Shown here: positions 9,187 through 24,692 of the stretch, in pieces
Layout of the letters: each line of letters opens with the position of its first letter
Numbering within the stretch: the stretch's first letter is position 1
Virus record (IMG/VR): IMGVR_UViG_3300012232_000049
Coordinates: 1-24,692 of that record
Strand: one strand, 5' to 3'
DNA length: 24,692 bases
Source of the DNA: a virus
Taxonomy: Duplodnaviria > Caudoviricetes
The notes under the pieces: model-generated
Seen by the model: only the letters and a program-made list of their open reading frames with translations
Told to the model about the DNA's origin: nothing
The model's database searches: none
Program-made: the position numbers and the translations under genes

Positions 9187-10658
9187 TAGAAGACTCCTCC
9201 GCTTGTGAAGTAGCCGGAGCTACCGCTTATGTCTGCAAGTTGTGAATTAGTATCGGCAAGCTCGTAAGGTAAAGGAGTACCGCTAATATCATCAACGGCA
9301 TCACTCAAGTGCATAGTCGCACCGAGCTTGAAGATGTGCATCAGTCCATATCGAATAGCGTCAGCTGCGTGGTTCTGGCTTTTGTTGTCACCTTCGGGAG
9401 CGTTACGACCGTTTGTTCCTTCTGGTGCGCGGTAGTTATTGAATTCTTCGATGATTTCGGTGCAGCTGTGGTCGACAAAGAAAGCGGGGGCGTATATCGG
9501 CCCTCCGAATTCGTCTTCGCCTTCTTCCCTATTGAGGAACGAACGGATAAGATCAATTCCTTCACGCCATCCACCAGCATCGCGACTCCCCTTCCCTGTT
9601 TCGCTACCTGATTTAGCCTTGGGATCTGCAATACATGGAACTAATAACTGACTTACAATAGATACTGCCTCTGGATCAGCAGCATCTGCAAAACCAAGGT
9701 CAAGGTGATAGCCCTCAGGCTGGGGACGAGCCTTCATTTGACGAATATGATCCTGAACGCTCGTGAAAGACTTGTAGTGCACACGCCATATATAAATACG
9801 GTCTTGCGGATCTACCTGAAATTCCACGAATGCGGCAGGATTAGTGTATCCCCAGTCAATGCACATGTAATTAGGCCACGCAGGATTGAAGCTTACGTTC
9901 CTTACGTTAGTCGTTACATCCCACTCTGGGAAAATCTTTCCTACGAACGAACCAAAGTCCGCGCCAATTTCCTGATCAAAGGCCTCCGGACTCATCGTCC
10001 TACGCAATAATCGTATTTCAGGATCCAGTTCACCATCGGGGTAAACGGCCGAATTCGCCCAACTGGGGAATCTCCAACTTTCGTACTCAGGAATAGTGTT
10101 ATCCTGACCATACATCCAAAGTTTGTACAGCCAGTTATATCCCTCAGGTGTAGTGGGGAAATCAGCACCGCCGCGACGGTCAGCTAAAGCAGGGCGAATG
10201 AATCGCTCCCACGTATCAGGATTGTGCTTTGCCGCCTCTGACATGATTACCCAGTCCAGGGCATCACCAACGAGATTCTCCGGATGATCTGCAGAGCGAA
10301 CTTCAACACGTGTATTCCAAGGGAATTGAATAAACATGTTGCCTTGCTTCTTGCTATATGCACGCTTGATTGTCTTATCACGACCGAGCTGTTGCTTAAC
10401 AATCAAGTCGTGCCATACAACACGAAACTCTTTTTCGCCTAGGTCATACGTCGGAGCAACAATCCAATATAAACGATCAGGTAGAAAAAGTTTAGGCTCA
10501 AGATCGCGGGCGGCCATAGTACTCTTACCAAACCGTCGGCCGCAATTAGGAAGACGAAAGCGTGCTTTACTAGTATGGTATAGAAGCTGTTGTGGATGGG
10601 GATCATAACCTATACGCCTAAAGAAAGCCGCCTTGTCAATTCCTACCTGGCCTTCCAC
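9186..10658 (-). CDS. terL: Terminase large subunit
   Basis: Q-motif 'PHPQQ', Walker A 'GRRFGKS', Walker B-like 'VIMSEAA', motif III 'TTPEG', nuclease 'DWGYTNP' and 'NHAADAIRY'. Confidence 0.93.
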   Translation of the reverse strand: MEGQVGIDKAAFFRRIGYDPHPQQLLYHTSKARFRLPNCGRRFGKSTMAARDLEPKLFLPDRLYWIVAPTYDLGEKEFRVVWHDLIVKQQLGRDKTIKRAYSKKQGNMFIQFPWNTRVEVRSADHPENLVGDALDWVIMSEAAKHNPDTWERFIRPALADRRGGADFPTTPEGYNWLYKLWMYGQDNTIPEYESWRFPSWANSAVYPDGELDPEIRLLRRTMSPEAFDQEIGADFGSFVGKIFPEWDVTTNVRNVSFNPAWPNYMCIDWGYTNPAAFVEFQVDPQDRIYIWRVHYKSFTSVQDHIRQMKARPQPEGYHLDLGFADAADPEAVSIVSQLLVPCIADPKAKSGSETGKGSRDAGGWREGIDLIRSFLNREEGEDEFGGPIYAPAFFVDHSCTEIIEEFNNYRAPEGTNGRNAPEGDNKSQNHAADAIRYGLMHIFKLGATMHLSDAVDDISGTPLPYELADTNSQLADISGSSGYFTSGGVF

Positions 10659-10660
10659 GC

Positions 10661-10999
10661 TTACTCTTCGCTTTCTGAACCCGCAGCCGCCGCAACAAAT
10701 CCCGTAACTTCGGAAATGAAATCTGCAACAGGATTAACAGCACCGTAAGCGTCATCGCCTACGCGACCCAGCACACGCTCAGTAATATACTTCTGCGCAT
10801 CAAGTCGAGTCCGCTCATTTGAACCATGAATGGCGGTATGCACAATACCTAGGATAGCGGCGCCAACATTCTCTCGAAGGAGGCGGCGTGCAATCTGCTC
10901 GTTATCCTCTTCGGTATGAATGGTACGCTCAGCGATAAGCGCATTTAGGGCATCGTCGGGAACCCAAGTGCTGTCAGACTCTTCCATATCCATGCCCAT
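10661..10999 (-). CDS. Probable terminase small subunit
   Basis: 112-aa helical protein directly upstream of terL; assignment rests mainly on synteny. Confidence 0.55.
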   Translation of the reverse strand: MGMDMEESDSTWVPDDALNALIAERTIHTEEDNEQIARRLLRENVGAAILGIVHTAIHGSNERTRLDAQKYITERVLGRVGDDAYGAVNPVADFISEVTGFVAAAAGSESEE

Positions 11000-11029
11000 C
11001 TCCCTTCATATGAGTTGCACTCTAGCTCT

Positions 11030-11081
11030 ATTATATGGTGAACATCTAGACCGACGCATACACCTTAGATATAATAGTAAC
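11030..11081 (-). promoter_or_regulatory. Putative late promoter copy 2 (GTTACTATTATATCT box, 31 bp, TATAAT)
   Basis: Fills the intergenic gap upstream of the terminase genes; spacing identical to the other two copies. Confidence 0.65.
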
Positions 11082-11082
11082 G

Positions 11083-11349
11083 CTACGTAATAGCTATTGT
11101 GCCGCAGTCCATAACAGGAATTTCAGGAGAGTCAGTGATCTTAGCATAGATATCATACATACCCGGCGTAAGTCCTGAAATCATTACGCCTACTTCAAGT
11201 CCCAATACAACTGCAGTAGTCCAAACTGTAGGTCGCGCACCATGTGCTACGATAGATGTCGAAACACCTGCAGTCTGAATTACACCGTCCTTCTTAATGA
11301 TAAGCGGCTGAAACTCAACCGTCTCACGTGGATAACTATTGGTTTTCAT
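11083..11349 (-). CDS. Small beta-rich virion protein, possible fibre adaptor (Ig/BppU-like)
   Basis: 88 aa; overlaps the end of the giant gene; 'LTPGMYDIYAKITDSPEIPV' beta-sandwich-like pattern. Confidence 0.55.
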   Translation of the reverse strand: MKTNSYPRETVEFQPLIIKKDGVIQTAGVSTSIVAHGARPTVWTTAVVLGLEVGVMISGLTPGMYDIYAKITDSPEIPVMDCGTIAIT

Positions 11350-14300
11350 TTTGTCCTTCCCAACGCTTGAGGTCCAAAGTTGCCGTCCGCTTCCTTCTGC
11401 TTGTACTACCTACCCAACGCTGATCATCCAAAACTGCAGTGCGAGCTCTAATTGCCGTTACTGCTTGCCAACGCCTATCGCCTATAACACCTATAGCGAT
11501 GACATTAAGACCTGTCGATGGAGCAATATTCCATGTAGTACTACGTTCGGATGTAATACTACCTGCACCATATACAGTCCACGTCGTAAGCTTTGTGGAT
11601 AGGATCGTCTTCTTCGTATCCCACATTGTAAGACGTGGTGAATGAATTGCTTGCTTAACATGCCATATAGTAGGACGCTGAGATGTTTCAGTGCGCTTAA
11701 CATCCCACGTAGTAGAATGGAACTTTGTAGTCGTAGTACTTAAGTTCCAAGTTGTCGGACGAGGCTCAGTAATTCTTACATTCGTATTCCATATGATTAC
11801 ACGAAGTGAAGTAACACCACCTGCAAAGAATACATCCCATGTGGTACTACGCGGACTAACTGCAAGACGTAATACCCTCCAGGTAGTCGACCGTGTAGTA
11901 GGACCAACGGGAGTAAACACGTGCCAAGTCGTAGGTTGCAGTTCGGTAACTAATTGCCTAACATTCCAAGTCGTGCTACGAAGCGTAGGCCCAACAGGAG
12001 TAAACACATGCCAAGTAGTAACACGAGGTGATACGGCAAGGAATAACGTATTCCACGTAGTAGGACGTGTAATACTAATTGTCTTAAGCACATGCCATGT
12101 TGTCGGACGAGAAGATTCAGCCGTAACTAATACTCGCCAGGTAGTACCACGTGAGGATGTCGCCTGACCTTGTATCTGTACATCCCAAGTAGTAGGACGT
12201 GAAGATGAAATAGTAACGAGCGTATTCCACATCGTTGATACGGGATCAGTAATAGTCTGCTTAACGTGCCAAGTAGTTAATCGAAGTACAAGAACTGGCG
12301 TAAATACGTGCCACGTGGTGCCCCTTGAATTGGAGACCACAAGCCTAGTATGCCAAGTCGTAGGACGCAGAGATGTAGTCGGAGTATTAACGTTCCAAGA
12401 CACAATACGAGTAACTAGCGGAACCGTGAAGGAAACATTCCAAGTAGTCAAACGAGACGAGGACTCTATCTTTCGTACATTCCAAGTAGTTGATCGAACA
12501 GACGTAGCACTAGTTGTTACTTCTACATGCCAAGTTGTCGATCGTGCAGATGTTTCAGCCTTATTAACAATCCACGATGTGTCCTGTGTCTCGGTAATGA
12601 ACTTCTTCGTATCCCATGTAGTAGGACGTAATACGTTAATTCGTCCAATAACGACCCACGTTGTGCTTCGAGGACTAGTCGCGGAAGTAAAGACGCGCCA
12701 CGTCGTCGCACGAGAGCCTGTAGCAATCTGAGATACTTGCCAAGACGTATCTCTTGACTGTGTAATGAATTTTCGTGTATGCCAAGTAGTGGATCTAGCA
12801 GATACTGCGACGGTAGTAAATACATGCCACGTCGTAGGTTGTGTTTCAGTTACTACCTGTCTAGTATTCCATGTTGTTGACCTAGTAGACGTAACAGGCA
12901 CATTTGCAAGTACATCCCAAGTAGTACTTCGAGGCGATGAAACTGCCTGAAGTGTCTTCCACGTTGTCAGCCTAGTACTAATACCACCTGAGATGAATAT
13001 GTTCCATGTAGTTGCTCTAGTTGTAGGCGCAACTCTAAAGAGCGTATGCCAAGTTGTAGGCTGCGTCTCAGTAATAGCTTGTAGGATTCGCCATGTCGTC
13101 GATATAGGATCAGTAACTGCCTGCCTAACATGCCAGGTAGTGGATACTAGATCTGTTACAGCCTGCAAAGTCTTCCAAGTCGTAGACCTAGTCGACGTTA
13201 CTGGCACTGTCGTAAGTACGTTCCATGTCGTATCGCGTGAAGATGTTTCAGTCTTCTTCGTATTCCAAGTTGTGGCTCGTGCGGATGTTGCAGGCGGATT
13301 AGCGACATTCCACGTCGTACGGACTATTGATGTTACAGGTGGTAATTCGACAAATGCTGCAGTAATATAAGCACTATCATCTACAGTCATAGTCCAGCCA
13401 GCAGGCTCAATAGTCGCCTGCGCATAAAAATCATAGCGAGAAAAGCCTTGACCAGTTAATCCATCATCGGCACTAGTGATAAGCGTCCACCCATATGATG
13501 GTGTCGCAGGAAACGTATCATGACCACTATGAATAGCAAAATAACCACAATACGGTTTACCAACAATAAGACCGGACAGATTTGCCATAGGATTAGCACT
13601 GCCACCAAGACCACCAGTAGAACCAAATTGCCCAACGCCTCGAATTCTATTACCTGCAACACCAGGAATCATTGTTGCTACAACCATACGCTTAAGACTT
13701 GTGCCTGAAGAATCATACGATACTGTTTGAGTACCTGTAGGAATATTATCCAGGAAGTACATATAAACGCCGCCGGGCTCAGTCGTCTCAGAGTAGCCAT
13801 TTAGTTGTGTCATTGAAAAGCCGCCATAAACGACATTGCTAATCTCACTAAACGAAGAACCACTCTGAGCAATAATGACAATAGCTGCCTGTGCCGACGC
13901 GGACGCATTATGCGTTGTATTTTGTGTACCAACTGATGTATTAGTTGCGCTTACAGTAGCTAAATCATGCGTAATTCTCGGCGTAGATGTTAAAGTGACA
14001 TTCCATGTCGTAGTACGGGATGAAGTAACTTTTGCTGTAGGTGTAGTAGATGCCTGATAAAGAACAATACTACCAAATACTGAATCCATAACTGATGCGC
14101 CAGATGCAACAGCCCAACCACTAGAAGCGGATCCAGAAGTTGGCACTAATGATAAGACTTGAAATCCTCGTGCTTGTGACCCAAGATCAGTGGTACTAAG
14201 ACTAACCCAACCGTTAGAAGTAGATGTATTAAATGAATCATGTCCTGCGTGAATAACTTCAAAAAGTAACTGGAAAATACCCGGAGATACACTAATATTC

Positions 14301-17300
14301 AAAAATGGTGCGTTGCTAATAGTGCTATAAGTACCCTGAACAGGTTCTAGATGTCTAATCTGACTTCCTGATTGTGCGATTACTGTTGACACTACTAACT
14401 GCCTATTAGTAGCAGCTGTTGTGGTCATTGCAACGTTCTGAGTTCCTGTAGGAATCCCATCTAAGAAGTAAATATAAATTGCGCCTGGTTCGATAGGATC
14501 AGTATCAAACCTAACGCGATGCATCGGTATGCCGCCATACGTTACACCAGTAATCTCATCAATAGTTGTACCATTCTGAGAAATCATAACAACAGCAGCT
14601 CGAGCCGAAGCGCTAGCGACATGCGACGTAGTTTGCGTACCTATCGAAGCATATGCGGCAGCGATAGTTGACGTATCATAAGACATTGGTGGGGGAACTT
14701 CAATAAACGCTGCACCCAATATAGCGTATGCATGTGATGGAAGTTGCCAACCTATATTTACCTGCTGTCCTGTTGCATAAATATCTTTATACGCAAAACC
14801 TCGACCCTGTAATCCAAGATCAGTACCACTAATAAGAACTGAATCAACCATCGGTGTATTTGGAAATGAATCACTGGACGAATGAATGGCGTAATAAATT
14901 AAATGACGTGCACCAGCTACTGTCAAAGGTGATGCGCCAGGAATACCTGTAGTATTAATAGCCGTACCACCAAGCCCATTGGTAATACCTACAAGCTTGA
15001 TAGTATTACCTGATGTACCAGGAATAATCGTCGAAATGACCATTTGCTTTGAAGATGAACCTGTCGTGGTCATTACGACATTCTGAGTCCCGGTAGCGGG
15101 ATTCTCGAGGTAGTAAAGATAAATCCTTCCGAGTTCCGTAAGTGTATTCCCCTGTGTTCTTACTAATACCATAGAAGTGCCACCATACGTGACACTACTA
15201 ACTTCACTAGTAGAAGAACCATTCTGCACAATCATAACTACTGCACCCTTAGCAAGCGCACTAGCTGTGTGTGAAACAGTCTGCGACCCTGTTGACACAT
15301 AATCAGAGCCAACGGTCGCGGCGTCATGATATAATGCAGCGCCAGTATTCCACGTCGTCGAGCGGGACGAAGTTACCTTCGTTGTACCGGCAACTTGTAA
15401 AAGTGATATACCGCTCGTAACATACGAACCAGAACCTATACCCCATCCACCACTAAAGCTAGATGACCAAGAGTGATGAAACATATGTGCGAAAGCGCGG
15501 CCATTTAACGCATCAGCCTGAGCATAAATAGCACTCCAGCCAGCCTTAGGAGCATTAACATCAAAGGCATTATCACCAAAGTGCATAACTTCAAAAAGTA
15601 AATGTGATGTATCAGGCGTTAATCCATTAAATTGAACTGAACCACTATTAGAACCAGACCACGTAACACCAGTATGACCATTTCCAACATACTCGATATG
15701 ATATCCTGCAATTCCGGTAAGAACTGTAGAAATCGTCATAATCTTACTAGTTGTTCCTGCGGTCGTCATTACTGCATTTTGAGTACCTGTCGGACAACCA
15801 TCAAGGAAGTAAATATATGTTGCGCCTGCCTCTGTTGCATCCGTATCAAAACGAATACGATGCATAGGAACGCCGCCATAAGTAACAGTTCTGACCTCGT
15901 CCCACTGCACCCCGTTCTGCTCGATCATAACGACCACAGCCCGAGCAGAAGCACTACCAGCATGTGAAACGGTCTGCGAACCGATAGACGAGTATGGTGA
16001 AGCGACTGTACTTACATCATGAACAGGCGGCGGTGGAATCTCATAGAACCAAGCTGCTGATAATCCATACGAAGCAGCCATAGAGCCAAACCAACCAGCA
16101 TTTTGTGTTGAAGAAAGAGCCACAATATCTGTATTAGCAAAGCCGCGACCACTTGTGCCAAGGTCTGATGATTCAATTAGTGACCAGGGAGGAGACGTTC
16201 TTGGAGTAGCGGGGAAAGCATCATCGCCCGAAGTAATAGCTTCGTAACCGAGATACTGTCTATTAACATTAAAGGAAGTACCAGCTACAAGTGGATTTGT
16301 AGATGAGGAAAGTGCTCCATTCACCACAAATCCGCGAATGACGTTTCCTGGCGTACCTACAATCATAGTCGCGACAACAAGCTTCTTAGTATTACTGCCA
16401 TACGTCGTCATAACGACGTTTTGCGTACCTGTAGGAATATTATCAAGGAAGAAGACTGTTACACATCCACCTTCTGTCGCATCTGCTTGCCCCCCAAAGT
16501 AACTCATAGGAACGCCGCCATATGTGACGTCAGACACTTCACTTACAGTAGCGGTAAGTGTATGAATCAAGACAACTGCAGCGCGTGCAGATGCTGACGC
16601 AGCATGAGATGTCGTCTGTGACCCTATAGAAGAATAATCTGCGGCAACTGTTATAACATCATTCTGGAATAGCCCAATAACATCCCATGTCGTACTACGT
16701 TGAGACGTAATAGGTGGTTGCGCTACATCCCATGTTGTTGCTCGAAGAGAAGTGATCTCCTTCTTAGTGTCCCAAGTTGTGGCCCTAGGTGATGTTTCAG
16801 CCTTAAATGTTTTCCACGTCGTAGGCCTAGCAACAATAGGAACTAAGAAAAGTGTCTTCCATGTCGTAGCACTAAGCGTCTTAGTCTCAGTCTTTAGTGT
16901 ATTCCAAGTCGTAGCTTGTGTCTCGGTAACTCGACCTTGAAGATCCCACGTCGTAGCTCGAGAAGACGTGACTGAAGTTAAAACGACACCCGGCTGCAAG
17001 ACAAATACGGTGCCACCGATATTGCCCGAACCATTGACGAAGTTCCACGTCTGCGTCGCCGTGCCCGTGACGATCTTGTACTGGGCGAATGACGAGACGT
17101 TCGTTGCAGCGCTACCACCAGTAGTGGCCTGGCAATACGGAGTCGCCCACGATCCGTTCGTCGTGTCCGAGTCGGGCGTATAGGCTGACGTGTTCGTCTC
17201 GCTGCCACCACACCCAATGACAAGATCACCATTCGTAGCGGAACCGCTAGTAATGGCCAGTGTACCGTTTGTCGCTCGACCAAGAACCTCAGCAACACGC

Positions 17301-17677
17301 TCCGTTGTGGACAGGCCAGTAAAACTAAGAATGGTGACAGAGCAGGCCCCAGTAGCGGCGGAGAAGTTGACGGTGATAGTATCCGTAGGAGTGACGAGTG
17401 CACGACTCGGCTTGCCGATCCATACCTGATTCAGAACACCCGAACCACTCGACGGGGTGGCGGGGGCCTTCGTGATTGGGGCGAGAGCCGTGTACGTCGT
17501 TCCCGGTGTATCCGTGACAGACGAGATCGTCGGAGTCGAGGCGCCACTCGGATCGAAGGAAACGATAACGATGATTGTTTCATTCGCTGCCGAGTTAGTC
17601 GAGACGGAACTATTGGCCGTCGAAGTGGAGCCCTTAGCAGCGTAGCCGCCAAGATACGCATCAAAGGCGATCGCCAC
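11336..17677 (-). CDS. 2113-aa repeat-rich virion fibre / receptor-binding-like protein
   Basis: Single long ORF with GTG start and GGGAGGG RBS; Thr/Ser/Val-rich; about 50 short TTW repeats plus five about 220-aa domains. The function is inferred. Confidence 0.75.
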   Translation of the reverse strand: MAIAFDAYLGGYAAKGSTSTANSSVSTNSAANETIIVIVSFDPSGASTPTISSVTDTPGTTYTALAPITKAPATPSSGSGVLNQVWIGKPSRALVTPTDTITVNFSAATGACSVTILSFTGLSTTERVAEVLGRATNGTLAITSGSATNGDLVIGCGGSETNTSAYTPDSDTTNGSWATPYCQATTGGSAATNVSSFAQYKIVTGTATQTWNFVNGSGNIGGTVFVLQPGVVLTSVTSSRATTWDLQGRVTETQATTWNTLKTETKTLSATTWKTLFLVPIVARPTTWKTFKAETSPRATTWDTKKEITSLRATTWDVAQPPITSQRSTTWDVIGLFQNDVITVAADYSSIGSQTTSHAASASARAAVVLIHTLTATVSEVSDVTYGGVPMSYFGGQADATEGGCVTVFFLDNIPTGTQNVVMTTYGSNTKKLVVATMIVGTPGNVIRGFVVNGALSSSTNPLVAGTSFNVNRQYLGYEAITSGDDAFPATPRTSPPWSLIESSDLGTSGRGFANTDIVALSSTQNAGWFGSMAASYGLSAAWFYEIPPPPVHDVSTVASPYSSIGSQTVSHAGSASARAVVVMIEQNGVQWDEVRTVTYGGVPMHRIRFDTDATEAGATYIYFLDGCPTGTQNAVMTTAGTTSKIMTISTVLTGIAGYHIEYVGNGHTGVTWSGSNSGSVQFNGLTPDTSHLLFEVMHFGDNAFDVNAPKAGWSAIYAQADALNGRAFAHMFHHSWSSSFSGGWGIGSGSYVTSGISLLQVAGTTKVTSSRSTTWNTGAALYHDAATVGSDYVSTGSQTVSHTASALAKGAVVMIVQNGSSTSEVSSVTYGGTSMVLVRTQGNTLTELGRIYLYYLENPATGTQNVVMTTTGSSSKQMVISTIIPGTSGNTIKLVGITNGLGGTAINTTGIPGASPLTVAGARHLIYYAIHSSSDSFPNTPMVDSVLISGTDLGLQGRGFAYKDIYATGQQVNIGWQLPSHAYAILGAAFIEVPPPMSYDTSTIAAAYASIGTQTTSHVASASARAAVVMISQNGTTIDEITGVTYGGIPMHRVRFDTDPIEPGAIYIYFLDGIPTGTQNVAMTTTAATNRQLVVSTVIAQSGSQIRHLEPVQGTYSTISNAPFLNISVSPGIFQLLFEVIHAGHDSFNTSTSNGWVSLSTTDLGSQARGFQVLSLVPTSGSASSGWAVASGASVMDSVFGSIVLYQASTTPTAKVTSSRTTTWNVTLTSTPRITHDLATVSATNTSVGTQNTTHNASASAQAAIVIIAQSGSSFSEISNVVYGGFSMTQLNGYSETTEPGGVYMYFLDNIPTGTQTVSYDSSGTSLKRMVVATMIPGVAGNRIRGVGQFGSTGGLGGSANPMANLSGLIVGKPYCGYFAIHSGHDTFPATPSYGWTLITSADDGLTGQGFSRYDFYAQATIEPAGWTMTVDDSAYITAAFVELPPVTSIVRTTWNVANPPATSARATTWNTKKTETSSRDTTWNVLTTVPVTSTRSTTWKTLQAVTDLVSTTWHVRQAVTDPISTTWRILQAITETQPTTWHTLFRVAPTTRATTWNIFISGGISTRLTTWKTLQAVSSPRSTTWDVLANVPVTSTRSTTWNTRQVVTETQPTTWHVFTTVAVSARSTTWHTRKFITQSRDTSWQVSQIATGSRATTWRVFTSATSPRSTTWVVIGRINVLRPTTWDTKKFITETQDTSWIVNKAETSARSTTWHVEVTTSATSVRSTTWNVRKIESSSRLTTWNVSFTVPLVTRIVSWNVNTPTTSLRPTTWHTRLVVSNSRGTTWHVFTPVLVLRLTTWHVKQTITDPVSTMWNTLVTISSSRPTTWDVQIQGQATSSRGTTWRVLVTAESSRPTTWHVLKTISITRPTTWNTLFLAVSPRVTTWHVFTPVGPTLRSTTWNVRQLVTELQPTTWHVFTPVGPTTRSTTWRVLRLAVSPRSTTWDVFFAGGVTSLRVIIWNTNVRITEPRPTTWNLSTTTTKFHSTTWDVKRTETSQRPTIWHVKQAIHSPRLTMWDTKKTILSTKLTTWTVYGAGSITSERSTTWNIAPSTGLNVIAIGVIGDRRWQAVTAIRARTAVLDDQRWVGSTSRRKRTATLDLKRWEGQNENQ
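11520..13335 (-). repeat. About 42 tandem 14-16-aa protein repeats, consensus [VIA]TSxR[SPA]TTWx[VT]xxx
   Basis: Counted by eye in the translation; 7 more lie at about 16680-16975 and 2 between the large domains. Confidence 0.9.
13340..16670 (-). repeat. Five tandem about 220-aa domains
   Basis: Each has D..T......S.G[ST]Q...H.....A.[AG].[VI]V, then V.YGG..M and [FY]L.....GTQ. Confidence 0.88.
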
Positions 17678-18294: not shown

Positions 18295-18527
18295 TACTTG
18301 TCATCCCCTTCAGCGGTAGTGCTTACACCAAATCCGACACTCTCTTGGAAAGCTACAAGCTCAGTCATAGGTTCGCCGGTCTCATGCTCTGCCAGGTGCT
18401 CAGCGCCTCGAGCCTCCGCTTGTGCCTCGGTCTCCCAACCCTGTGAAAGGAAGGGGGCGCATGTTCCTGCTGGGAAGTCACACAGGAAGTCATACTTGCC
18501 TGTGTCATCGTTCTTGAATACAGCCAT
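18294..18527 (-). CDS. Small hypothetical protein with C-x6-C...H-x3-H (possible Zn site)
   Basis: AGAAGGAG RBS supports ATG 18527; first gene of the late arm; stop overlaps the next start. Confidence 0.7.
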   Translation of the reverse strand: MAVFKNDDTGKYDFLCDFPAGTCAPFLSQGWETEAQAEARGAEHLAEHETGEPMTELVAFQESVGFGVSTTAEGDDK

Positions 18528-18602
18528 TGCCACTCCTTCTAGATTGGTCATGTTGGGTGGTGGAGCTCAAGTTCAAAGTAAATCATAGAGGCCCTTATGG
18601 TT

Positions 18603-18654
18603 ATTATAATGGTGTTGGGTAAGGGGACGCCGACAGGGAAGATATAACAGTAAC
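18603..18654 (-). promoter_or_regulatory. Putative late promoter copy 3 (GTTACTGTTATATCT box, 31 bp, TATAAT)
   Basis: Heads the whole minus-strand arm; same box and spacing. Confidence 0.65.
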
Positions 18655-18694
18655 ACATGAACCTTGGCATATTTTCAGTATACCCCAGGGCCGG

Positions 18695-18722
18695 TTAAAA
18701 ATTTTTTTCGTTCTACTATAAT
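18695..18722 (+). promoter_or_regulatory. Putative early promoter (TATAAT at 18717-18722, AT tract upstream)
   Basis: Perfect -10 but weak -35; followed by a 5' hairpin AGTGCGAGCG-AGAAG-CGCTCGTACT. Confidence 0.5.
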
Positions 18723-18774
18723 ATAGTTATAAGTGCGAGCGAGAAGCGCTCGTACTCTTGCGAGAGGTATGCTC

Positions 18775-19002
18775 ATGTTGGTTACTGGTTACGCCGCTGC
18801 GAAGATCGTGAATGCCGTCCTCACCGAGGCAGGCCTCCCTGCCATCCCACCCCAGATGGTGTACAACTACACCACCGCCCGGCTGCGGGCCGGGAAGGCA
18901 CCCCTCATCGCGTGCGATGCGGAGGGCCGGATTGACACGGAGGCCCTGGAGGCCTGGGTCACCAAGTACGTGGCCAAGAAGGTTGCCAACGCAACCAAGT
19001 AG
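18775..19002 (+). CDS. Xis/HTH-like small protein, paralog 1 (PQMVYNY)
   Basis: GAGAGG RBS supports ATG 18775; 42 of 75 residues identical to 19290-19541 by manual alignment. Confidence 0.75.
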   Translation: MLVTGYAAAKIVNAVLTEAGLPAIPPQMVYNYTTARLRAGKAPLIACDAEGRIDTEALEAWVTKYVAKKVANATK

Positions 19003-19004
19003 GG

Positions 19005-19040
19005 AGTAGGGGAGGGGCCCGTAAGGGCCCCCATCCTGCT
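19005..19040 (+). terminator. GC-rich hairpin GGGGCCC-GTAA-GGGCCCC after paralog 1
   Basis: 7-bp perfect stem with a GNRA loop plus an outer stem; no U-tract, as is common in actinobacterial terminators. Confidence 0.55.
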
Positions 19041-19193
19041 TAGGGTCCTGGAGCCCCGTAGCGCCAGGGTCCTAAGGAGGGTGTCTGCCCTCCGGAGAGA
19101 GGTCTACTATGTGGTCCCCAGTTAGTCATAGCGGTGGGGTCCTAGCTTATCGACCCCGACGGGGTCAATTCAAAATGCGAATGAATAACCATC

Positions 19194-19223
19194 TTGACAT
19201 GTACGAGAGGTACGCATTATAAT
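19194..19223 (+). promoter_or_regulatory. Consensus sigma70/SigA promoter TTGACA-N18-TATAAT
   Basis: Perfect hexamers upstream of paralog 2. Confidence 0.85.
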
Positions 19224-19289
19224 TAGAACATGCAAGAGAGAATCGCGTACGCAAACACGCGTACGTACTCATATCAGAAAGGTACTCAC

Positions 19290-19541
19290 ATGTCCGCAAT
19301 GTCACCGTACGCTGCAAGCAAGGTTGTAAACGTCGTACTCGAAGAGAACAGCATCGCACCGATTCCGCCACAGATGATGTACAACTACACAACGGCACGA
19401 GTTCGTGCGGGTAAGGTTCCGTTGATTCCGATCAATGCGGACAACAAGATCGAGTTGGCCGATCTCGAAGCATGGGTTACGAAGTACGTAACAAAGAAGC
19501 TTTCGAACATCGAAGCGAAGTTGGCCGAGAACACGAAGTAG
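19290..19541 (+). CDS. Xis/HTH-like small protein, paralog 2 (PQMMYNY)
   Basis: AGAAAGG RBS supports ATG 19290; clear paralog of 18775-19002. Confidence 0.78.
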   Translation: MSAMSPYAASKVVNVVLEENSIAPIPPQMMYNYTTARVRAGKVPLIPINADNKIELADLEAWVTKYVTKKLSNIEAKLAENTK

Positions 19542-19598
19542 TACGAAGACGGAGGGTCGGGTTAGAAGAAATTCTAACCCTTCCCCCTGTCTTCGTAC
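19541..19598 (+). other. Long interrupted intergenic hairpin A
   Basis: GTACGAAGAC/GTCTTCGTAC outer stem and GGGTTAGAA-GAAA-TTCTAACCC inner stem. Confidence 0.75.
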
Positions 19599-19625
19599 GG
19601 AAGATGGGTTCTTAAGGGAGGTACT

Positions 19626-19976
19626 ATGAAGAACCTTAAGGCGGTGTTCTCGCAAGCAATTGCGGACGTTGAAAACAGACGTCCTGCGGCCAAGCGGGCC
19701 CCGCATGTTCCGGAGTCCACAGGAGTCGCGGTAACGCGCAACGACCTCTTCAATGACCCGGACAAGCAGAATACAGCACCAGTGTCCAAGCGGCAGAACA
19801 AGAATAGAGGGCCTGCAAGGTCCAAGGCCAACTGGAATGCTCAAAGGTGGGTCCAAGCGGTCGGAGGTACAAGCGACACCATGAAGGCCATCTACGCGGA
19901 CGCCGATAAGGAACTCTGCGTAGTGGTTGATTCCCGAAGAGGATTCCGCCCTGATGGAACACCGTTTAGGTTCTAG
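19626..19976 (+). CDS. Hypothetical basic protein (116 aa)
   Basis: GGGAGG RBS; no recognised motif. Confidence 0.6.
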   Translation: MKNLKAVFSQAIADVENRRPAAKRAPHVPESTGVAVTRNDLFNDPDKQNTAPVSKRQNKNRGPARSKANWNAQRWVQAVGGTSDTMKAIYADADKELCVVVDSRRGFRPDGTPFRF

Positions 19977-20076
19977 AGTATAACAAGACCCTCAAATATG
20001 TAAGCATCAATGTCCCAGGACATTGTGGTCATTGATGATTGAGGTGTTGAGATAACAACTCGCGTTGTGTTCTTGT

Positions 20077-20140
20077 TATAACATGACGATACGTACTATA
20101 ACATTCTATATAACATATAACTATAACATAACTATATAAC
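20077..20140. repeat. AT-rich cluster of TATAAC repeats
   Basis: TATAAC at 20077, 20097, 20109, 20116, 20122 and 20135, plus CATAAC at 20127. Confidence 0.8.
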
Positions 20141-20229
20141 CACATAAATCTCAATCCAAAGGGACTAGTCAGTTTCGTGACCCCTACGGTAATCACCAGG
20201 TTATCTAAAAAGTGCCTAAGATATGGTAC

Positions 20230-20259
20230 TTGAAAAGTTCCAAAGGTTCGCGATATAAT
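20230..20259 (+). promoter_or_regulatory. Promoter TTGAAA-N18-TATAAT
   Basis: Near-consensus hexamers with the same 18-bp spacer as 19194 and 22512. Confidence 0.8.
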
Positions 20260-20301
20260 AGTTATAGCACGAAAAGAATCGCGTACACGAGAGGTTATAA
20301 C

Positions 20302-20490
20302 ATGAAGAAAGATTTGTCAGAACAATCGTTACGGGAACTACTTCTTACGTTCGAAACGATAACCGAATTGCTGTACGACCTAGAAGCGAACGATGCGGGT
20401 CACGAAACAGCAAAACTGTACCACGAAACAAAGGAACGTCTTAAGAACCTAGAATCAAATCAGTTCGAACAAATAATCAAAGGGTTCTAA
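20302..20490 (+). CDS. Hypothetical protein (62 aa)
   Basis: GAGAGG RBS supports ATG 20302 rather than the track's 20212, which lies upstream of the promoter. Confidence 0.7.
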   Translation: MKKDLSEQSLRELLLTFETITELLYDLEANDAGHETAKLYHETKERLKNLESNQFEQIIKGF

Positions 20491-20523
20491 ACACAACCAC
20501 AACAGTACACGAGAGGTACTATT

Positions 20524-20793
20524 ATGAACGTGAACGTGAACAAGGAGGGTAAGGCATCATTCCGTGACCTTACCCCAGAACAGGGACGTACAATATGGTT
20601 CGCTCTTGAGGCCTTGAAGGGTGCATATCAGGCCTCACTCATCGAGTACGCAGAATCGGTTGCGGGTCTACAGAACGAGGACGCCGTGTTCTTATATTCC
20701 GAACTCGCAGCCGTAACAGCATTGCAGTACGAAATGATGGACGACTACATGGAACCGACGCGTACAACAGTACGAGAGTGGTTCTACGTCTAA
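20524..20793 (+). CDS. Hypothetical protein (89 aa)
   Basis: GAGAGG RBS; operon context. Confidence 0.75.
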   Translation: MNVNVNKEGKASFRDLTPEQGRTIWFALEALKGAYQASLIEYAESVAGLQNEDAVFLYSELAAVTALQYEMMDDYMEPTRTTVREWFYV

Positions 20794-20818
20794 CACAACA
20801 CAACCCAGAGAGGTCACA

Positions 20819-21031
20819 ATGGGACAACAGATCGCGGTTACAATATATGTCGACATCGAACCACCCGAAGTGTGCGACATGCCACTAGATGAGTACGCAA
20901 GTACCATTTATGACATAGTGGCACAGTCACCCGATGCACCAGTACTGCTAGGCCCAATGATATGGGTTGAGGTTGCAGAAGAGGACCAAGTGTCACTAGT
21001 AGTGGACAACCGAATACATCGTACTAAGTAG
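20819..21031 (+). CDS. Hypothetical acidic protein (70 aa)
   Basis: GAGAGG RBS; operon context. Confidence 0.7.
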   Translation: MGQQIAVTIYVDIEPPEVCDMPLDEYASTIYDIVAQSPDAPVLLGPMIWVEVAEEDQVSLVVDNRIHRTK

Positions 21032-21080
21032 TACTTGTCAGTACATCCTAACGCGGATGTACTGGCACTGCATTACTTAG
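21024..21080 (+). other. Long interrupted intergenic hairpin B
   Basis: CTAAGTAGT/ATTACTTAG outer stem and TGTCAGTACATCC-TAACGC-GGATGTACTGGCA inner stem. Confidence 0.75.
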
Positions 21081-21105
21081 CACAACTACAACCTAAGGAG
21101 AACCG

Positions 21106-21486
21106 ATGTTCAGTTCAATGGACGTCGAGTGGGACGAAAGGACCGAACTCAGCGAGTGGGAATGCCACTTGAAGGGTGATGTTTGGTATATCGGTCTTAC
21201 CCGCTCGTACAGCGAAGTGAAAGATGTCATATGGGAGGCGTGGGTCTTCACCACGAACCCCGAAGATAAGTCCGAACCGTTCAAGATGGATATGGGGCCT
21301 GTGAACTCCAAGACCCCGATTGCGGTTGCACAGCACTACATTGAGTACATGTTGCGTAAGATGTACTGCGAGAGGTTCGTAAAGGGACTTACGCCTGAAG
21401 AGGTCGATATGTTCGTCAACGTGGTCGATATGATTGTGGATCGTGACTTCAACCTACACACCACTGATAGTACAACAACAGAATAA
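21106..21486 (+). CDS. Hypothetical protein (126 aa)
   Basis: TAAGGAG RBS. Confidence 0.75.
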   Translation: MFSSMDVEWDERTELSEWECHLKGDVWYIGLTRSYSEVKDVIWEAWVFTTNPEDKSEPFKMDMGPVNSKTPIAVAQHYIEYMLRKMYCERFVKGLTPEEVDMFVNVVDMIVDRDFNLHTTDSTTTE

Positions 21487-21506
21487 CAACCCTGAGAGAG
21501 GTTATC

Positions 21507-21749
21507 ATGACTACAACCGATACACCCAAATGTATGGACGACCGAGGTCACGGAACTTGCCTTGGTGAGGTTCAATACCATATGCAACCATACCCTAGCA
21601 CCAAGAGCTTCCCACGGTGCGAACGACATTGGGAAGATAGGTGCAAGTTGCAAGACCAGATCGACAAGCGGTACGCGCCGAACAGCGATGTGCCTCCAAT
21701 TGGATTTGACCCGACGTACGCAGGAGAGAGGTGGAGTGATGACTACTAA
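21507..21749 (+). CDS. Conserved actinophage-type small Cys/His protein
   Basis: 'C.G.V.Y...SFPRC..HW' and 'FDPTYAGERW..DY', a pattern I recall from actinophage hypothetical proteins. Confidence 0.75.
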   Translation: MTTTDTPKCMDDRGHGTCLGEVQYHMQPYPSTKSFPRCERHWEDRCKLQDQIDKRYAPNSDVPPIGFDPTYAGERWSDDY

Positions 21750-22026
21750 GCTAACCAAGCGTGGCAGAAATGTAGTTGTGGGCACTGTGGTGCTTCTAAC
21801 CGCTGGTGCCGCGATGTTTGTGCCGGTGCAAGCTGATAACGCAACCGTGCCAAGGGGCTGGGAACCCGTGAATTCATTCTTAGCGGACGCCCTTGCTGAA
21901 GGGGGAGCACCTGATGCCACGACCCGTAACTGGGAAGCATGCATGGTGAAGTACCGTAAGCTAAGTACGGCGATTAGGTGCCCTGATGGTTACAAAGAAA
22001 GGTGGAGTAACGAAGTAGGCCCGTAA
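21739..22026 (+). CDS. Secreted or membrane-anchored hypothetical protein (95 aa)
   Basis: Start reassigned to ATG 21739; basic n-region, hydrophobic h-region and 'VQA-D' signal-peptidase-like site; two Cys. Confidence 0.7.
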   Translation: MTTKLTKRGRNVVVGTVVLLTAGAAMFVPVQADNATVPRGWEPVNSFLADALAEGGAPDATTRNWEACMVKYRKLSTAIRCPDGYKERWSNEVGP

Positions 22027-22027
22027 A

Positions 22028-22094
22028 GGTCGAAACGTGCTAGGTGAAGTACAACCCTAGCACGTCCACGCATAACTTGCGTGCTGATGAGACC
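22028..22094 (+). ncRNA. Type II hammerhead ribozyme
   Basis: GGTC-GAAA-C-GTGCTAGG(loop)CCTAGCAC-GTC^-CACGCA(TAACT)TGCGTG-CTGATGA-GACC. All core nucleotides and three perfect stems are present. Confidence 0.93.
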
Positions 22095-22107
22095 AGAGAG
22101 GAACATC

Positions 22108-22491
22108 ATGTCACTAGATTATGACCTTACAGAAATTGAAGATTCCGCGAGTGTATGTTATGACCTCGTCGATGAGGCTAACGATACCTTTCAGATGAAG
22201 TCTGTGACTCAGAACATTATCTTCGCAACTATTCCAGTTGACATTGGACATATTACCGAAGATAACTACCTGGACTTCTGGTTGAGGTACAAGCTTTGGG
22301 CAGCTAGTTATGTGTCCGAGAAGTTCCACCTTGGGTTCACGCTTGAAGACATTCATAACCATATCGGACTCAAGACTAACGTAAGTACCATGACAAAACA
22401 TACTTGGCTAACCAAGAGGCTTTCGGAGTTCATGGATTTGCACAAGGCGGACTTTAATTACTCAGTTGCACAGGCCGCAAAAAAGAATTAA
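22108..22491 (+). CDS. Hypothetical protein (127 aa)
   Basis: AGAGAGGA RBS right after the ribozyme supports ATG 22108. Confidence 0.75.
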   Translation: MSLDYDLTEIEDSASVCYDLVDEANDTFQMKSVTQNIIFATIPVDIGHITEDNYLDFWLRYKLWAASYVSEKFHLGFTLEDIHNHIGLKTNVSTMTKHTWLTKRLSEFMDLHKADFNYSVAQAAKKN

Positions 22492-22511
22492 AAATTCCTA
22501 TAGAAGTGGCC

Positions 22512-22541
22512 TTGATTTGTGCTAGATGTACGCGCTATAAT
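22512..22541 (+). promoter_or_regulatory. Promoter TTGATT-N18-TATAAT
   Basis: Same architecture as 19194 and 20230; upstream of paralog 3 and the tRNA. Confidence 0.75.
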
Positions 22542-22579
22542 AGAAACAGAGGCAAGAGAGATGATTGCTTACCTCGTTC

Positions 22580-22605
22580 CAACCACAACCACAACCACAA
22601 CCACA
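22580..22605 (+). repeat. (CAACCA)x4 tandem repeat in the 5' UTR
   Basis: Directly abuts the AGAAGGAG RBS. Confidence 0.9.
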
Positions 22606-22618
22606 GAAGGAGCATAAC

Positions 22619-22963
22619 ATGTCTACCAAGACACTGTCCACGCTCGAAGCGTTGGCCACCGAGGCTGACGCCAAGACGCAGGCACGGTTTGCTGAGCAGT
22701 CCGCTCAGGGCGTTGTCAATCCGATCGTGCTGGCCAACCTCTTAGGAGTTCGGCCGCAGATGATTTACAACTACATTCGTAAGGGCAAGTTCAGCCAGGA
22801 AGAGGCGGCTTTTGGGGAGAACAACACCCAGAAGATCGTCATCCAGCTGAACGAGGCGAACGCATTCGCGTTGGCTTACACCGATCGTAAGGTCGCTCGC
22901 GAGACCGCTGCAGCCGAGAAGATTGCAGCGGAGCTGGCCGGCGAGACCGTCGAGTCGGAGTAA
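22619..22963 (+). CDS. HTH (Xis/MerR-like) protein, paralog 3 (RPQMIYNY)
   Basis: 'NPIVLANLLGVRPQMIYNYIRKGK' is a classic HTH pattern; AGAAGGAG RBS supports ATG 22619. Confidence 0.8.
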   Translation: MSTKTLSTLEALATEADAKTQARFAEQSAQGVVNPIVLANLLGVRPQMIYNYIRKGKFSQEEAAFGENNTQKIVIQLNEANAFALAYTDRKVARETAAAEKIAAELAGETVESE

Positions 22964-23039
22964 CACGAACGACCCACGGAGTCGAACTTAGCGGGTATAA
23001 GAACTAAGCGATGGGGTGCGTGACTCCAACCCATCGTCC

Positions 23040-23112
23040 GCGCTACTAGCCCAATGGCAGAGGCAGAGGACTTAAAATCCTTCCAGTGTGAGTTCGAATC
23101 TCACGTGGCGCA
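23040..23112 (+). tRNA. tRNA-Leu(UAA), short variable loop, CCA not encoded
   Basis: Acceptor GCGCTAC/GTGGCGC-A; D arm GCC..GGC; anticodon arm GAGGA-CTTAAAA-TCCTT; T arm GTGAG-TTCGAAT-CTCAC. Confidence 0.93.
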
Positions 23113-23142
23113 CGCAAGATCAAAACACAGAGGGGAACTACC

Positions 23143-23430
23143 ATGCCTCAAATATACCTAACAAATGATGAACATGAAGTAGTCCTGAAGTTACGGGAAG
23201 CGGAAGAGAAGCCTCTCGGGTACTGCGAGGATTATCCTTGCTGCGGTCATACGCCGGATGATCCATGCACCCGTCAATGGTACGATCATCCTGACGCTTT
23301 CGATGAGCGGGTGAACCCACATTGCTTCTGCGAACATGAATTTGGGTTCTGCAACGTAGCTGATCGGGCCGATGAGGACGATGAAGAAAATGAGTACGAT
23401 GCACTTCTAAACGAAACCACAGAAGGGTAG
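23143..23430 (+). CDS. Cys-rich acidic hypothetical protein (CEDYPCCGH motif)
   Basis: GAGGGG RBS; 7 Cys and several His, so possibly metal-binding. Confidence 0.75.
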   Translation: MPQIYLTNDEHEVVLKLREAEEKPLGYCEDYPCCGHTPDDPCTRQWYDHPDAFDERVNPHCFCEHEFGFCNVADRADEDDEENEYDALLNETTEG

Positions 23431-23434
23431 AATA

Positions 23435-23743
23435 ATGACATCACCGAACGCAGCATATCTTAGGGCAAGGATCAATTTGTTGTCCGAACAGTTGGAAAAG
23501 ATCGAACTTCGTCCGGAAGATAACTTCGAGGATGGTGCTATTATCACCTTCCAGAAGTGCTTCGGACGCCCGCGTGGCACTTATTACACTTATGCCGCCA
23601 TCAAGGCTAAGGGTCAATGGTATCTTTCCGGTAATCGATTGGCACATTCGGCCAATAGCTGGGATACTATCATGGACTTCGTCGAGATGAACGAAGATGT
23701 TCCGCCCACTATTCGATACATGACTCAGTGGGCTGAACTCTGA
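23435..23743 (+). CDS. Hypothetical protein (YTYAAIKA.G.WY motif)
   Basis: Operon context; the motif resembles actinophage hypothetical proteins. Confidence 0.75.
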   Translation: MTSPNAAYLRARINLLSEQLEKIELRPEDNFEDGAIITFQKCFGRPRGTYYTYAAIKAKGQWYLSGNRLAHSANSWDTIMDFVEMNEDVPPTIRYMTQWAEL

Positions 23744-23982
23744 TGGCTACAACAAATGTCTCTACTCGAGGCCCTGAACAAGGCACAATACTTTCAAATG
23801 GCGCAATCGTTATTGAGTACGACAGCGACCACCAGAAAGCGTTGTGTCTCTGGAAGAACAACCGCGATCCATATGTCATCTGGTCTATCGATCAGATGAC
23901 CGGTGAGCCGTATCGAGGACACTACTTTACAGACCTAGCTGTGGCCGTGGAAGCCTGGATGGGACGTAAAGGTCGTCGGTAG
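23743..23982 (+). CDS. Hypothetical protein (79 aa)
   Basis: TGATG overlap with the upstream gene. Confidence 0.7.
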   Translation: MATTNVSTRGPEQGTILSNGAIVIEYDSDHQKALCLWKNNRDPYVIWSIDQMTGEPYRGHYFTDLAVAVEAWMGRKGRR

Positions 23983-24052
23983 TCTGGCGTAGTACCGGCG
24001 AGCACATCTTGTTATACCTCTCCGAGGTGTGCTCGCTGGCCTTATTCCAGAC
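23982..24052 (+). other. Long interrupted intergenic hairpin C
   Basis: GTCTGG/CCAGAC outer stem and CCGGCGAGCACATCTT/GAGGTGTGCTCGCTGG inner stem. Confidence 0.75.
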
Positions 24053-24069
24053 AACTAGGAAGAGGAGTT

Positions 24070-24306
24070 ATGACAGAAGCACAACGCATTCACGAGCACA
24101 ACATGAACGCAGCAGCAGAGGCACAGTACGAACATGATTGCGAAGAGGGTATCCTTAGCGATTACGAGACGTGTTCGTCATGTCTTAAGGTCGTACTTGA
24201 TGCAAGCTTGACTGAAGTTACACTAGGTCGTGTATGTCCTACGTGTCTCGAGACCATCAATAGATTAGTCGCTGATGCGAACGATCTAGGTGATAACGTC
24301 ATATGA
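24070..24306 (+). CDS. Small zinc-finger-like protein (CxxC...CxxC)
   Basis: CSSC and CPTC pairs; GAGGAG RBS. Confidence 0.72.
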   Translation: MTEAQRIHEHNMNAAAEAQYEHDCEEGILSDYETCSSCLKVVLDASLTEVTLGRVCPTCLETINRLVADANDLGDNVI

Positions 24307-24383
24307 TAGGCTATGCGGTCTGTGCTGTCCTTCTTTTAGGCGTCCTAGGTTTGTTACTTGCGATTGCCAAAGGGATGCTATAA
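24303..24383 (+). CDS. 26-aa hydrophobic peptide MIGYAVCAVLLLGVLGLLLAIAKGML
   Basis: ATGA overlap with the upstream stop; AGGTGA upstream; single TM helix; below the track cutoff. Confidence 0.55.
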   Translation: MIGYAVCAVLLLGVLGLLLAIAKGML

Positions 24384-24417
24384 AATAGTAATAGCGAAAG
24401 GAGAAGCCGTGACCTAA

Positions 24418-24669
24418 ATGGACAAGCCATCAGGAAACGAAACAGTTGCAAAGTCCTGTGGCGCTATCATTATAGGAATGCCCATAGTGGCCATTGGCCT
24501 CATACTATGTTTGAGTGTCATCGGCATCATTCCAGGAATCATTCTTATAGTACTAGGTAGCACACCACTCTTCATAGTCCAGAAAAGGAGCATTGAACAT
24601 AAGGTCGCATGGCAATTAAGAGACCATCCACTAGATGATACACCACCACCATGGATCGTTGACGAATGA
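24418..24669 (+). CDS. Membrane protein (2 TM, 83 aa)
   Basis: Hydrophobic hairpin 'AIGLILCLSVIGIIPGIILIVLG'; AAAGGAG upstream. Confidence 0.72.
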   Translation: MDKPSGNETVAKSCGAIIIGMPIVAIGLILCLSVIGIIPGIILIVLGSTPLFIVQKRSIEHKVAWQLRDHPLDDTPPPWIVDE

Positions 24670-24692
24670 TCAACGCCGTTGTTTCCCAAAAG

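Follow-up and report, generated by a model that had tools for sequence, protein, structure and literature searches.

The window (the whole 24,692-nt stretch of DNA analyzed here, IMG/VR record IMGVR_UViG_3300012232_000049) is a tailed-phage fragment, approximately 43% complete, in which head, terminase, portal, and tail genes lie on the minus strand and small genes of no assigned function on the plus strand. The runs that hold this phage record are mostly freshwater sediment metagenomes. Between two of the small plus-strand genes lies a genuine type II hammerhead ribozyme motif of the pseudoknot-free form (22027-22094, plus strand). The gene upstream of it (21739-22026, plus strand; 95 aa, no family match) ends with a TAA stop codon at 22024-22026, and a single base, A22027, separates this stop from stem II of the motif. 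Directly 3' of stem II is a Shine-Dalgarno-like AGAGAGG (22095-22101, plus strand), which is of the same style as those of the neighboring genes, and the ATG of the downstream gene (22108-22491, plus strand; 127 aa, with homologues in other uncultured phages) is located 13 nt past stem II. The product of gene 22108 had no match in PHROG, Pfam, or Atlas, and a direct search of viral contigs with this protein found none.

A sigma-70-type promoter-like site at 20230-20259 (plus strand; 11/12 consensus match) is the likely start of the ribozyme-bearing transcript. A second such site (10/12 consensus match) is present just past the downstream gene at 22512-22541 on the same strand, a further plus-strand promoter-like site was matched to the consensus at 19194, and no plus-strand terminator-like site was found between 20259 and 22491. 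The organization of the region suggests a host-transcribed unit of seven small genes in which the ribozyme would set the last gene apart, and judging from the gene layout this transcript is likely to be early. There are weak hints that the host may be an actinobacterium: gene 21507 matches 81 phage records (79 of Mycobacterium and 2 of Gordonia phages), and the best terminase matches are Microbacterium phages (37%). Two RNA runs (contigs) cover only 22615-22886 and the tRNA described below; the start that they share at 22615 was discarded as it lies at a skipped repeat.

Several other features were observed in the same record. A short tandem CAACCA-type repeat (22573-22614) lies in the leader of a gene at 22619-22963, which shows weak helix-turn-helix matches below the Pfam cut-offs and is covered by both RNA runs. 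A tRNA gene was detected at 23040-23112 (plus strand; Rfam, 56 bits), with two short hairpins upstream, and similar sequence is annotated as tRNA-Leu in phage records. Two adjacent paralogous small genes (18733-19002 and 19230-19541, plus strand) have a common PPQMxYNYTTAR motif, each lies behind a promoter-like site, and their homologues were found in two terminase relatives (L149 and L166). Of two long intergenic stretches, 19003-19230 contains several GC-rich hairpins and 19977-20300 is a very AT-rich run of short repeats, neither with an Rfam match. On the minus strand, 9186-17677 encodes a 2113-aa protein that matches minor tail proteins; this gene lies upstream of that for the terminase, which is an unusual location within the order of virion genes.

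Architecture of the hammerhead element

The initial annotation had described an intact type II hammerhead in this gene gap, and each element that it listed was found where it had been placed. All parts are on the plus strand. The 5' strand of stem II, GGTC (22028-22031), pairs with GACC (22091-22094), G10.1 being 22091 and C11.1 being 22031, and is followed by the G12-A13-A14 part of the core (22032-22034). Based on sequence and folding, the stem III hairpin (22035-22065) has 10 bp in total and an 11-nt loop, and consists of the A15.1 (22035)-U16.1 (22065) pair and nine further pairs (22036-22044 with 22056-22064). Cleavage is predicted from the hammerhead consensus to occur 3' of C17 (22066) in the GUC triplet, i.e., at 22066/22067. 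The stem I hairpin (22067-22083) has 6 bp (22067-22072 with 22078-22083) and a 5-nt loop, UAACU, in which U1.7 is 22073, and the core sequence CUGAUGA (22084-22090) leads into the 3' strand of stem II. All bases of the hammerhead class core (C3 U4 G5 A6 N7 G8 A9, G12 A13 A14 A15.1, U16.1 H17) are present, the core-adjacent pairs are C-G (1.1-2.1), G-C (10.1-11.1), and A-U (15.1-16.1), and stems I, II, and III have 6, 4, and 10 bp, respectively. The type II permutation is evident in that loops close stems I and III and stem II is open. The element had been said to begin two nucleotides after the stop codon and to extend up to the ribosome-binding site; stem II does start at the second base after the stop with the ribosome-binding site directly 3' of it, but A22027, the unpaired base immediately 5' of stem II, probably belongs to the ribozyme as well.

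The 91-nt region folds to the hammerhead shape with z = -3.58, and none of 200 shuffled sequences was equally good. A descriptor for types I-III applied to both strands found exactly one hammerhead within the window, the present element. When the window was dinucleotide-shuffled 150 times and again searched on both strands, seven loose matches were obtained, none of which had stems of at least 5/4/6 bp, and the best of them reached 14 bp in total versus 20 bp in the window element. A model built from 55 relatives, with the window left out, gave the element 61.2 bits (E ~1e-16) and the runner-up 11.2 bits.

The Rfam Hammerhead_II scan that had been proposed as a check was run and went against expectation: there was no match at the gathering score, at E-values up to 10, or in a direct search with RF02276, whose threshold of 37 bits was not reached by the window element. 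RF02276 misses the element because Rfam models the pseudoknotted form. The two agree in core and element order, but in the Rfam consensus stem II is 2 bp and stem I 9 bp long, and a tail is present. The same model found none of the 61 relatives of like build (23 loci) and detected three of the four pseudoknot-type copies in one locus (L129). A pseudoknot between loop I and the 3' tail was examined as a candidate for the window and rejected, as only 2 bp are possible versus at least 4 bp in the consensus described by Perreault 2011 (PMC3088659); among relatives, such a pairing was possible in 17/167 compared with a mean of 20 when tails were shuffled. In blastn searches of the element and of the region 18500-24692 against annotated phages, only tRNA-Leu matches were returned.

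What might take the place of the pseudoknot is suggested by comparison with other hammerheads. According to Perreault 2011 (PMC3088659), many examples lack the pseudoknot, and a U..YN / R..A contact was scored in all three types (Fig S5). The window has four of the four bases of this motif, and among the relatives with a 17-nt domain I (n=152), 73 have four bases, 73 have three, and 6 have fewer. A contact between U1.7 and an A has been described for full-length and minimal hammerheads (O'Rourke et al. as described in PMC11875169), and a conserved reverse Hoogsteen pair in hammerheads is described in PMC6155905. The arrangement in the window resembles the U1.7-A Hoogsteen contact described for sTRSV and Schistosoma hammerheads (PMC11875169) in that a U located seven bases past the cut is unpaired and the 4-bp strand of stem II is immediately preceded by an A. 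However, in the latter this A occupies the final position of a closed tetraloop, whereas in the window stem II is open and the A is one base after the stop codon. One trans construct is presented under a heading that U7 is not essential (PMC11875169 / PMC6155905), so for the window we infer the contact of U1.7 with A22027 rather than take it as given.

Relatives, strain variation, and distribution

By searching 22 of the 64 parts of IMG/VR with an exact-core pattern that fixed nothing but the core, stem II, and the GUC triplet, 127 loci were identified, corresponding to an estimated ~360 stretches in IMG/VR for one exact stem II sequence alone. All 127 loci carry a hammerhead with paired stems I and III, often several per contig. 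From 181 distinct rows, 167 relatives were kept, and 14 were dropped (the window itself, duplicate bodies, alternative registers, and those with stem II shorter than 4 bp or stem I shorter than 5 bp). Two positions outside the search pattern are nearly invariant: an A directly before stem II in 166/167 relatives and U1.7 in 164/167, with both conserved jointly in 164/167. A 17-nt domain I occurs in 152/167, and the window has all three features. When one member per locus was considered, the figures were 104/105 for the A, 103/105 for U1.7, and 97/105 for the 17-nt domain, against a background of ~24% each for A and U. Extensive two-sided pair changes were observed across loci, which are descriptive and do not constitute a test considering that members were chosen for pairing; in stem II, compensatory changes affect three of the four pairs (alignment A2). 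Judging from sequence, the window hammerhead is probably active.

Two further observations concern the relatives. In 45/164 of them (from loci L001-L127), the tail just 3' of stem II can pair over 4-5 bp with the CUGAN core (shuffled mean 14.5, maximum 22), and N7 covaries with the first tail base (23 U-A, 4 C-G, and 1 U-G). Such a tail, which is absent in the window, would be in competition with the active fold or keep the product locked. Arrays of 5-10 hammerheads, with one in nearly every gene gap across 3 kb, were found in L013/L014, L039, L071-L073, and L028, and none of them was detected by Rfam in the loci scanned.

Folding of naked RNA predicts a stem II probability of 0.97 for the element alone and 0.08-0.21 when 10-30 upstream bases are included, because GGCC at 22018-22021 can pair with the 5' strand of stem II. 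A weak stem II is predicted family-wide (probability at least 0.5 in 19/167 relatives with 60-nt flanks), by a folding model that omits tertiary contacts. An upstream competitor hairpin maintained by selection was considered and rejected, since it is not a feature of the family and native flanks are no worse than swapped ones; the predicted stem II median is 0.21 with native upstream flanks and 0.18 with swapped flanks.

A strain contig from another study (X2, depth 5) spans 21735-22965 and differs from the window at 36 positions. Sixteen of the differences fall in 21961-22016 (56 bases) and five in 22102-22107 (6 bases), and there are none in 22017-22101. Thus, 21 positions differ in the flanks of the ribozyme and none inside it. 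If changes were spread uniformly, the probability of no change in 68 nt would be 0.125, and a value of 2e-6 is obtained only within the divergent block, which was chosen post hoc. AGAGAGG is also unchanged in X2, and five of the next six bases differ. Four further DNA runs are near-identical over the element where they cover it and add no variation. The ribozyme appears to be under selection, as far as these sequences tell.

Its distribution among related phages is patchy. Among 28 records with a related terminase, four carry one clear ribozyme of the window's form each; a weak fifth model match (L179, 18.8 bits) was left uncounted. Three of these relatives have a U4C change in the core and a UAACA loop that shares UAAC with the window (L176:1501-1568, minus strand; L177 and L178:1501-1568, plus strand). 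When only near-complete terminase relatives are considered, two of six have a ribozyme and four do not. Gene 22108 homologues were found in 18 loci (not counting L128, the window's own record), in two of which (L129 and L130, with identical arrangement) the gene is flanked by hammerheads on either side, the other 16 having none. In L129 and L130, four type II hammerheads of the pseudoknot type lie within ~1.1 kb (1870-2950), and two of the four bracket a homologue that is 34% identical. The window record, 24.7 kb and ~43% complete, has a single copy and hence no hammerhead cluster bracketing genes. The ribozyme is therefore kept where present, yet patchy among relatives, and its absence from 16 of 18 homologue loci and four of six near-complete terminase relatives implies that it is dispensable in the group.

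This patchiness, together with the weak stem II predicted in context, would be expected if the element were an inactive or neutral passenger, kept merely as two stabilizing hairpins or moved along by exchange of gene modules. We consider this extremely unlikely, as no catalytic base has been lost, the two tertiary positions are retained, and X2 has no change inside the ribozyme while its flanks diverge.

Predicted cleavage products and their fate

The chemistry by which hammerheads leave a 5'-OH end is established. The explanation that we regard as the best overall, and as probably correct, is that a polycistronic transcript, likely an early one, is cut by the ribozyme after C22066 into two hairpin-ended pieces, most likely in a constitutive manner. 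Starting at the promoter-like site at 20230-20259, host RNA polymerase would transcribe six small genes, then the ribozyme, and finally gene 22108. In the resulting RNA, stems I and II would be aligned by a single U-A tertiary contact, formed by U1.7 (U22073) and A22027 in place of the pseudoknot of the Rfam form, and self-cleavage after C22066 would need no regulator. The upstream piece would end in the 10-bp stem III hairpin (predicted -15.7 kcal/mol) with a 2',3'-cyclic phosphate, and the 22108 message would carry a 5'-OH within the 6-bp stem I hairpin (-7.7 kcal/mol; probability 0.90 in the folded downstream product), so that in the predicted fold the product starts inside the hairpin and has no free 5' bases. 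As only the 4-bp stem II would then join the pieces, they would be expected to part, and re-ligation would be unlikely. For the phage, the benefit would be that the lifetime and translation of the 22108 message are uncoupled from the upstream genes, and the direction of the stability effect depends on host nucleases. The split of the polycistron into pieces, with a 22108 message whose 5'-OH lies in a hairpin, had already been put forward in the initial annotation and agrees with the intact motif, the predicted hairpin, and the established chemistry, the cut itself being predicted.

This reading has clear precedents. Type II hammerheads are common in bacteria, where they flank genes in prophages, and processing into gene-length messages was proposed in Perreault 2011 (PMC3088659). 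The earlier statement that phage hammerheads are known is therefore correct, but to call their role largely uncharacterized was an overstatement given that proposal. As described in the same paper, 14 of 18 consensus hammerheads were active and 4 of 18 inactive, and tandem arrays cleave (three in vitro and one in E. coli). The phage hammerheads described there resemble the window element in permutation, core, intergenic site in an operon of small phage genes of unassigned function, and proposed role, and differ in that their consensus has a pseudoknot of at least 4 bp between loop I and the 3' tail, whereas the window has 2 bp and a single copy rather than an array. The HHphage ribozyme of haloviruses HF1/HF2 lies 13 nt upstream of the start codon of an early gene, as in the window, and its in vivo activity is suggested by a 5' end mapped close to the cut (PMC3088659); however, it has a core variant, lies before the first ORF of the transcript, and belongs to an archaeal virus. 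The polycistron idea is taken up again in a 2019 review, according to which these ribozymes have an undefined purpose (PMC6765202). In a literature search that covered few subscription papers, no description of the pseudoknot-free phage form was found beyond what is described in Perreault 2011.

The 5' end of the 22108 message had also been predicted to resist decay that depends on a 5'-monophosphate, which would vary with the host. A 5'-OH end is a poor substrate for the 5'-sensor route of RNase E, and a hammerhead-made 5' end is seemingly not phosphorylated in E. coli, but direct entry is a major route for RNase E (PMC4191395). In B. subtilis, RNase J1 degrades the 5'-OH product of glmS, and a trimming activity turns 5'-OH ends into monophosphate (bioRxiv 10.1101/2023.03.12.532304). 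These B. subtilis findings, together with the weak hints of an actinobacterial host, are in line with an alternative in which the cut lowers expression, either through 5'-3' decay of the downstream message as with glmS or as a switch-off of an early message. Actinobacterial hosts carry RNase J. Nevertheless, the predicted product begins in a 6-bp hairpin, and a hairpin without free 5' bases should hinder exonuclease entry. Moreover, nearly all genes in the arrays are preceded by a hammerhead with a strong ribosome site behind it, an arrangement more in keeping with expression than with silencing. Thus, we find lowered expression quite unlikely.

Two further possibilities were examined in the folded RNA. 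Cleavage-gated translation of gene 22108 was rejected, as the energies for opening the ribosome site (4.9, 7.2, and 9.4 kcal/mol before and 5.6, 7.5, and 7.6 kcal/mol after cleavage; a difference of -0.7 to +1.8 kcal/mol on cutting) reveal no clear switch. In the product, the core is predicted to form a 5-bp helix with the bases that precede the start codon; this helix was not treated as conserved, since five of the six spacer bases differ in X2.

The upstream stop codon and the significance of this form

The initial annotation had suggested that the short stem II beside the upstream stop could couple cleavage to translation. The position of the element raises the question of whether a ribosome terminating at this stop gates or completes cleavage, so that the cut would depend on translation of the upstream gene. 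Judging from its footprint, a terminating ribosome would cover A22027 and the 5' strand of stem II, and translation would clear the competing upstream RNA; the upstream coding hairpin of the window lowers the predicted stem II probability from 0.97 to ~0.1-0.2. However, native upstream flanks of the relatives reduce stem II no more than swapped ones (0.21 versus 0.18). The stop of a long ORF lies -1 to 5 nt from stem II in 109/164 relatives versus 1.7% of random and 3.0% of dinucleotide-matched positions, and in 49 relatives the conserved A or the first G is itself part of the stop codon, although the relatives behind these counts are not phylogenetically independent. Tight packing after stop codons is also ordinary in phage operons, and the pattern may be packing economy. 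The median slack is 2 nt on the stop side versus 10 nt from stem II to the Shine-Dalgarno sequence, the stop side being the smaller in 90/116, but the A/C-rich 3' spacer has a likely reason of its own (ribosome loading). On balance, gating by the terminating ribosome appears unlikely, and constitutive cleavage is preferred.

A broader version of this idea can be stated for the whole form that is invisible to Rfam, defined here by a 4-bp stem II, a 6-bp stem I with a 5-nt loop, and no pseudoknot. It would be an abundant hammerhead that reaches full speed via one U-A contact, with the A in or beside a stop codon, and whose cut is controlled or completed by the terminating ribosome; we regard this as a speculative and unlikely proposal. 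If it were true, the stop-gated form would represent a translation-coupled, protein-free way of chopping early operons into hairpin-capped single-gene messages.

Phage genes flanked by type II hammerheads have been known since 2011, and the window adds one of a common form that is missed by Rfam. What hammerheads do in bacteria and phages is described as an open question (PMC6765202), for which the window provides a clean single-copy test example. The window ribozyme does not itself answer that question, as it comes from an uncultured phage and is flanked by genes of unassigned function. The practical gain lies in annotation, considering that, for a single exact stem II sequence, IMG/VR is estimated to contain ~360 stretches with the form missed by Rfam, and the two nearly invariant positions outside the classical core offer both a better model for this family and a sharp mutational test.
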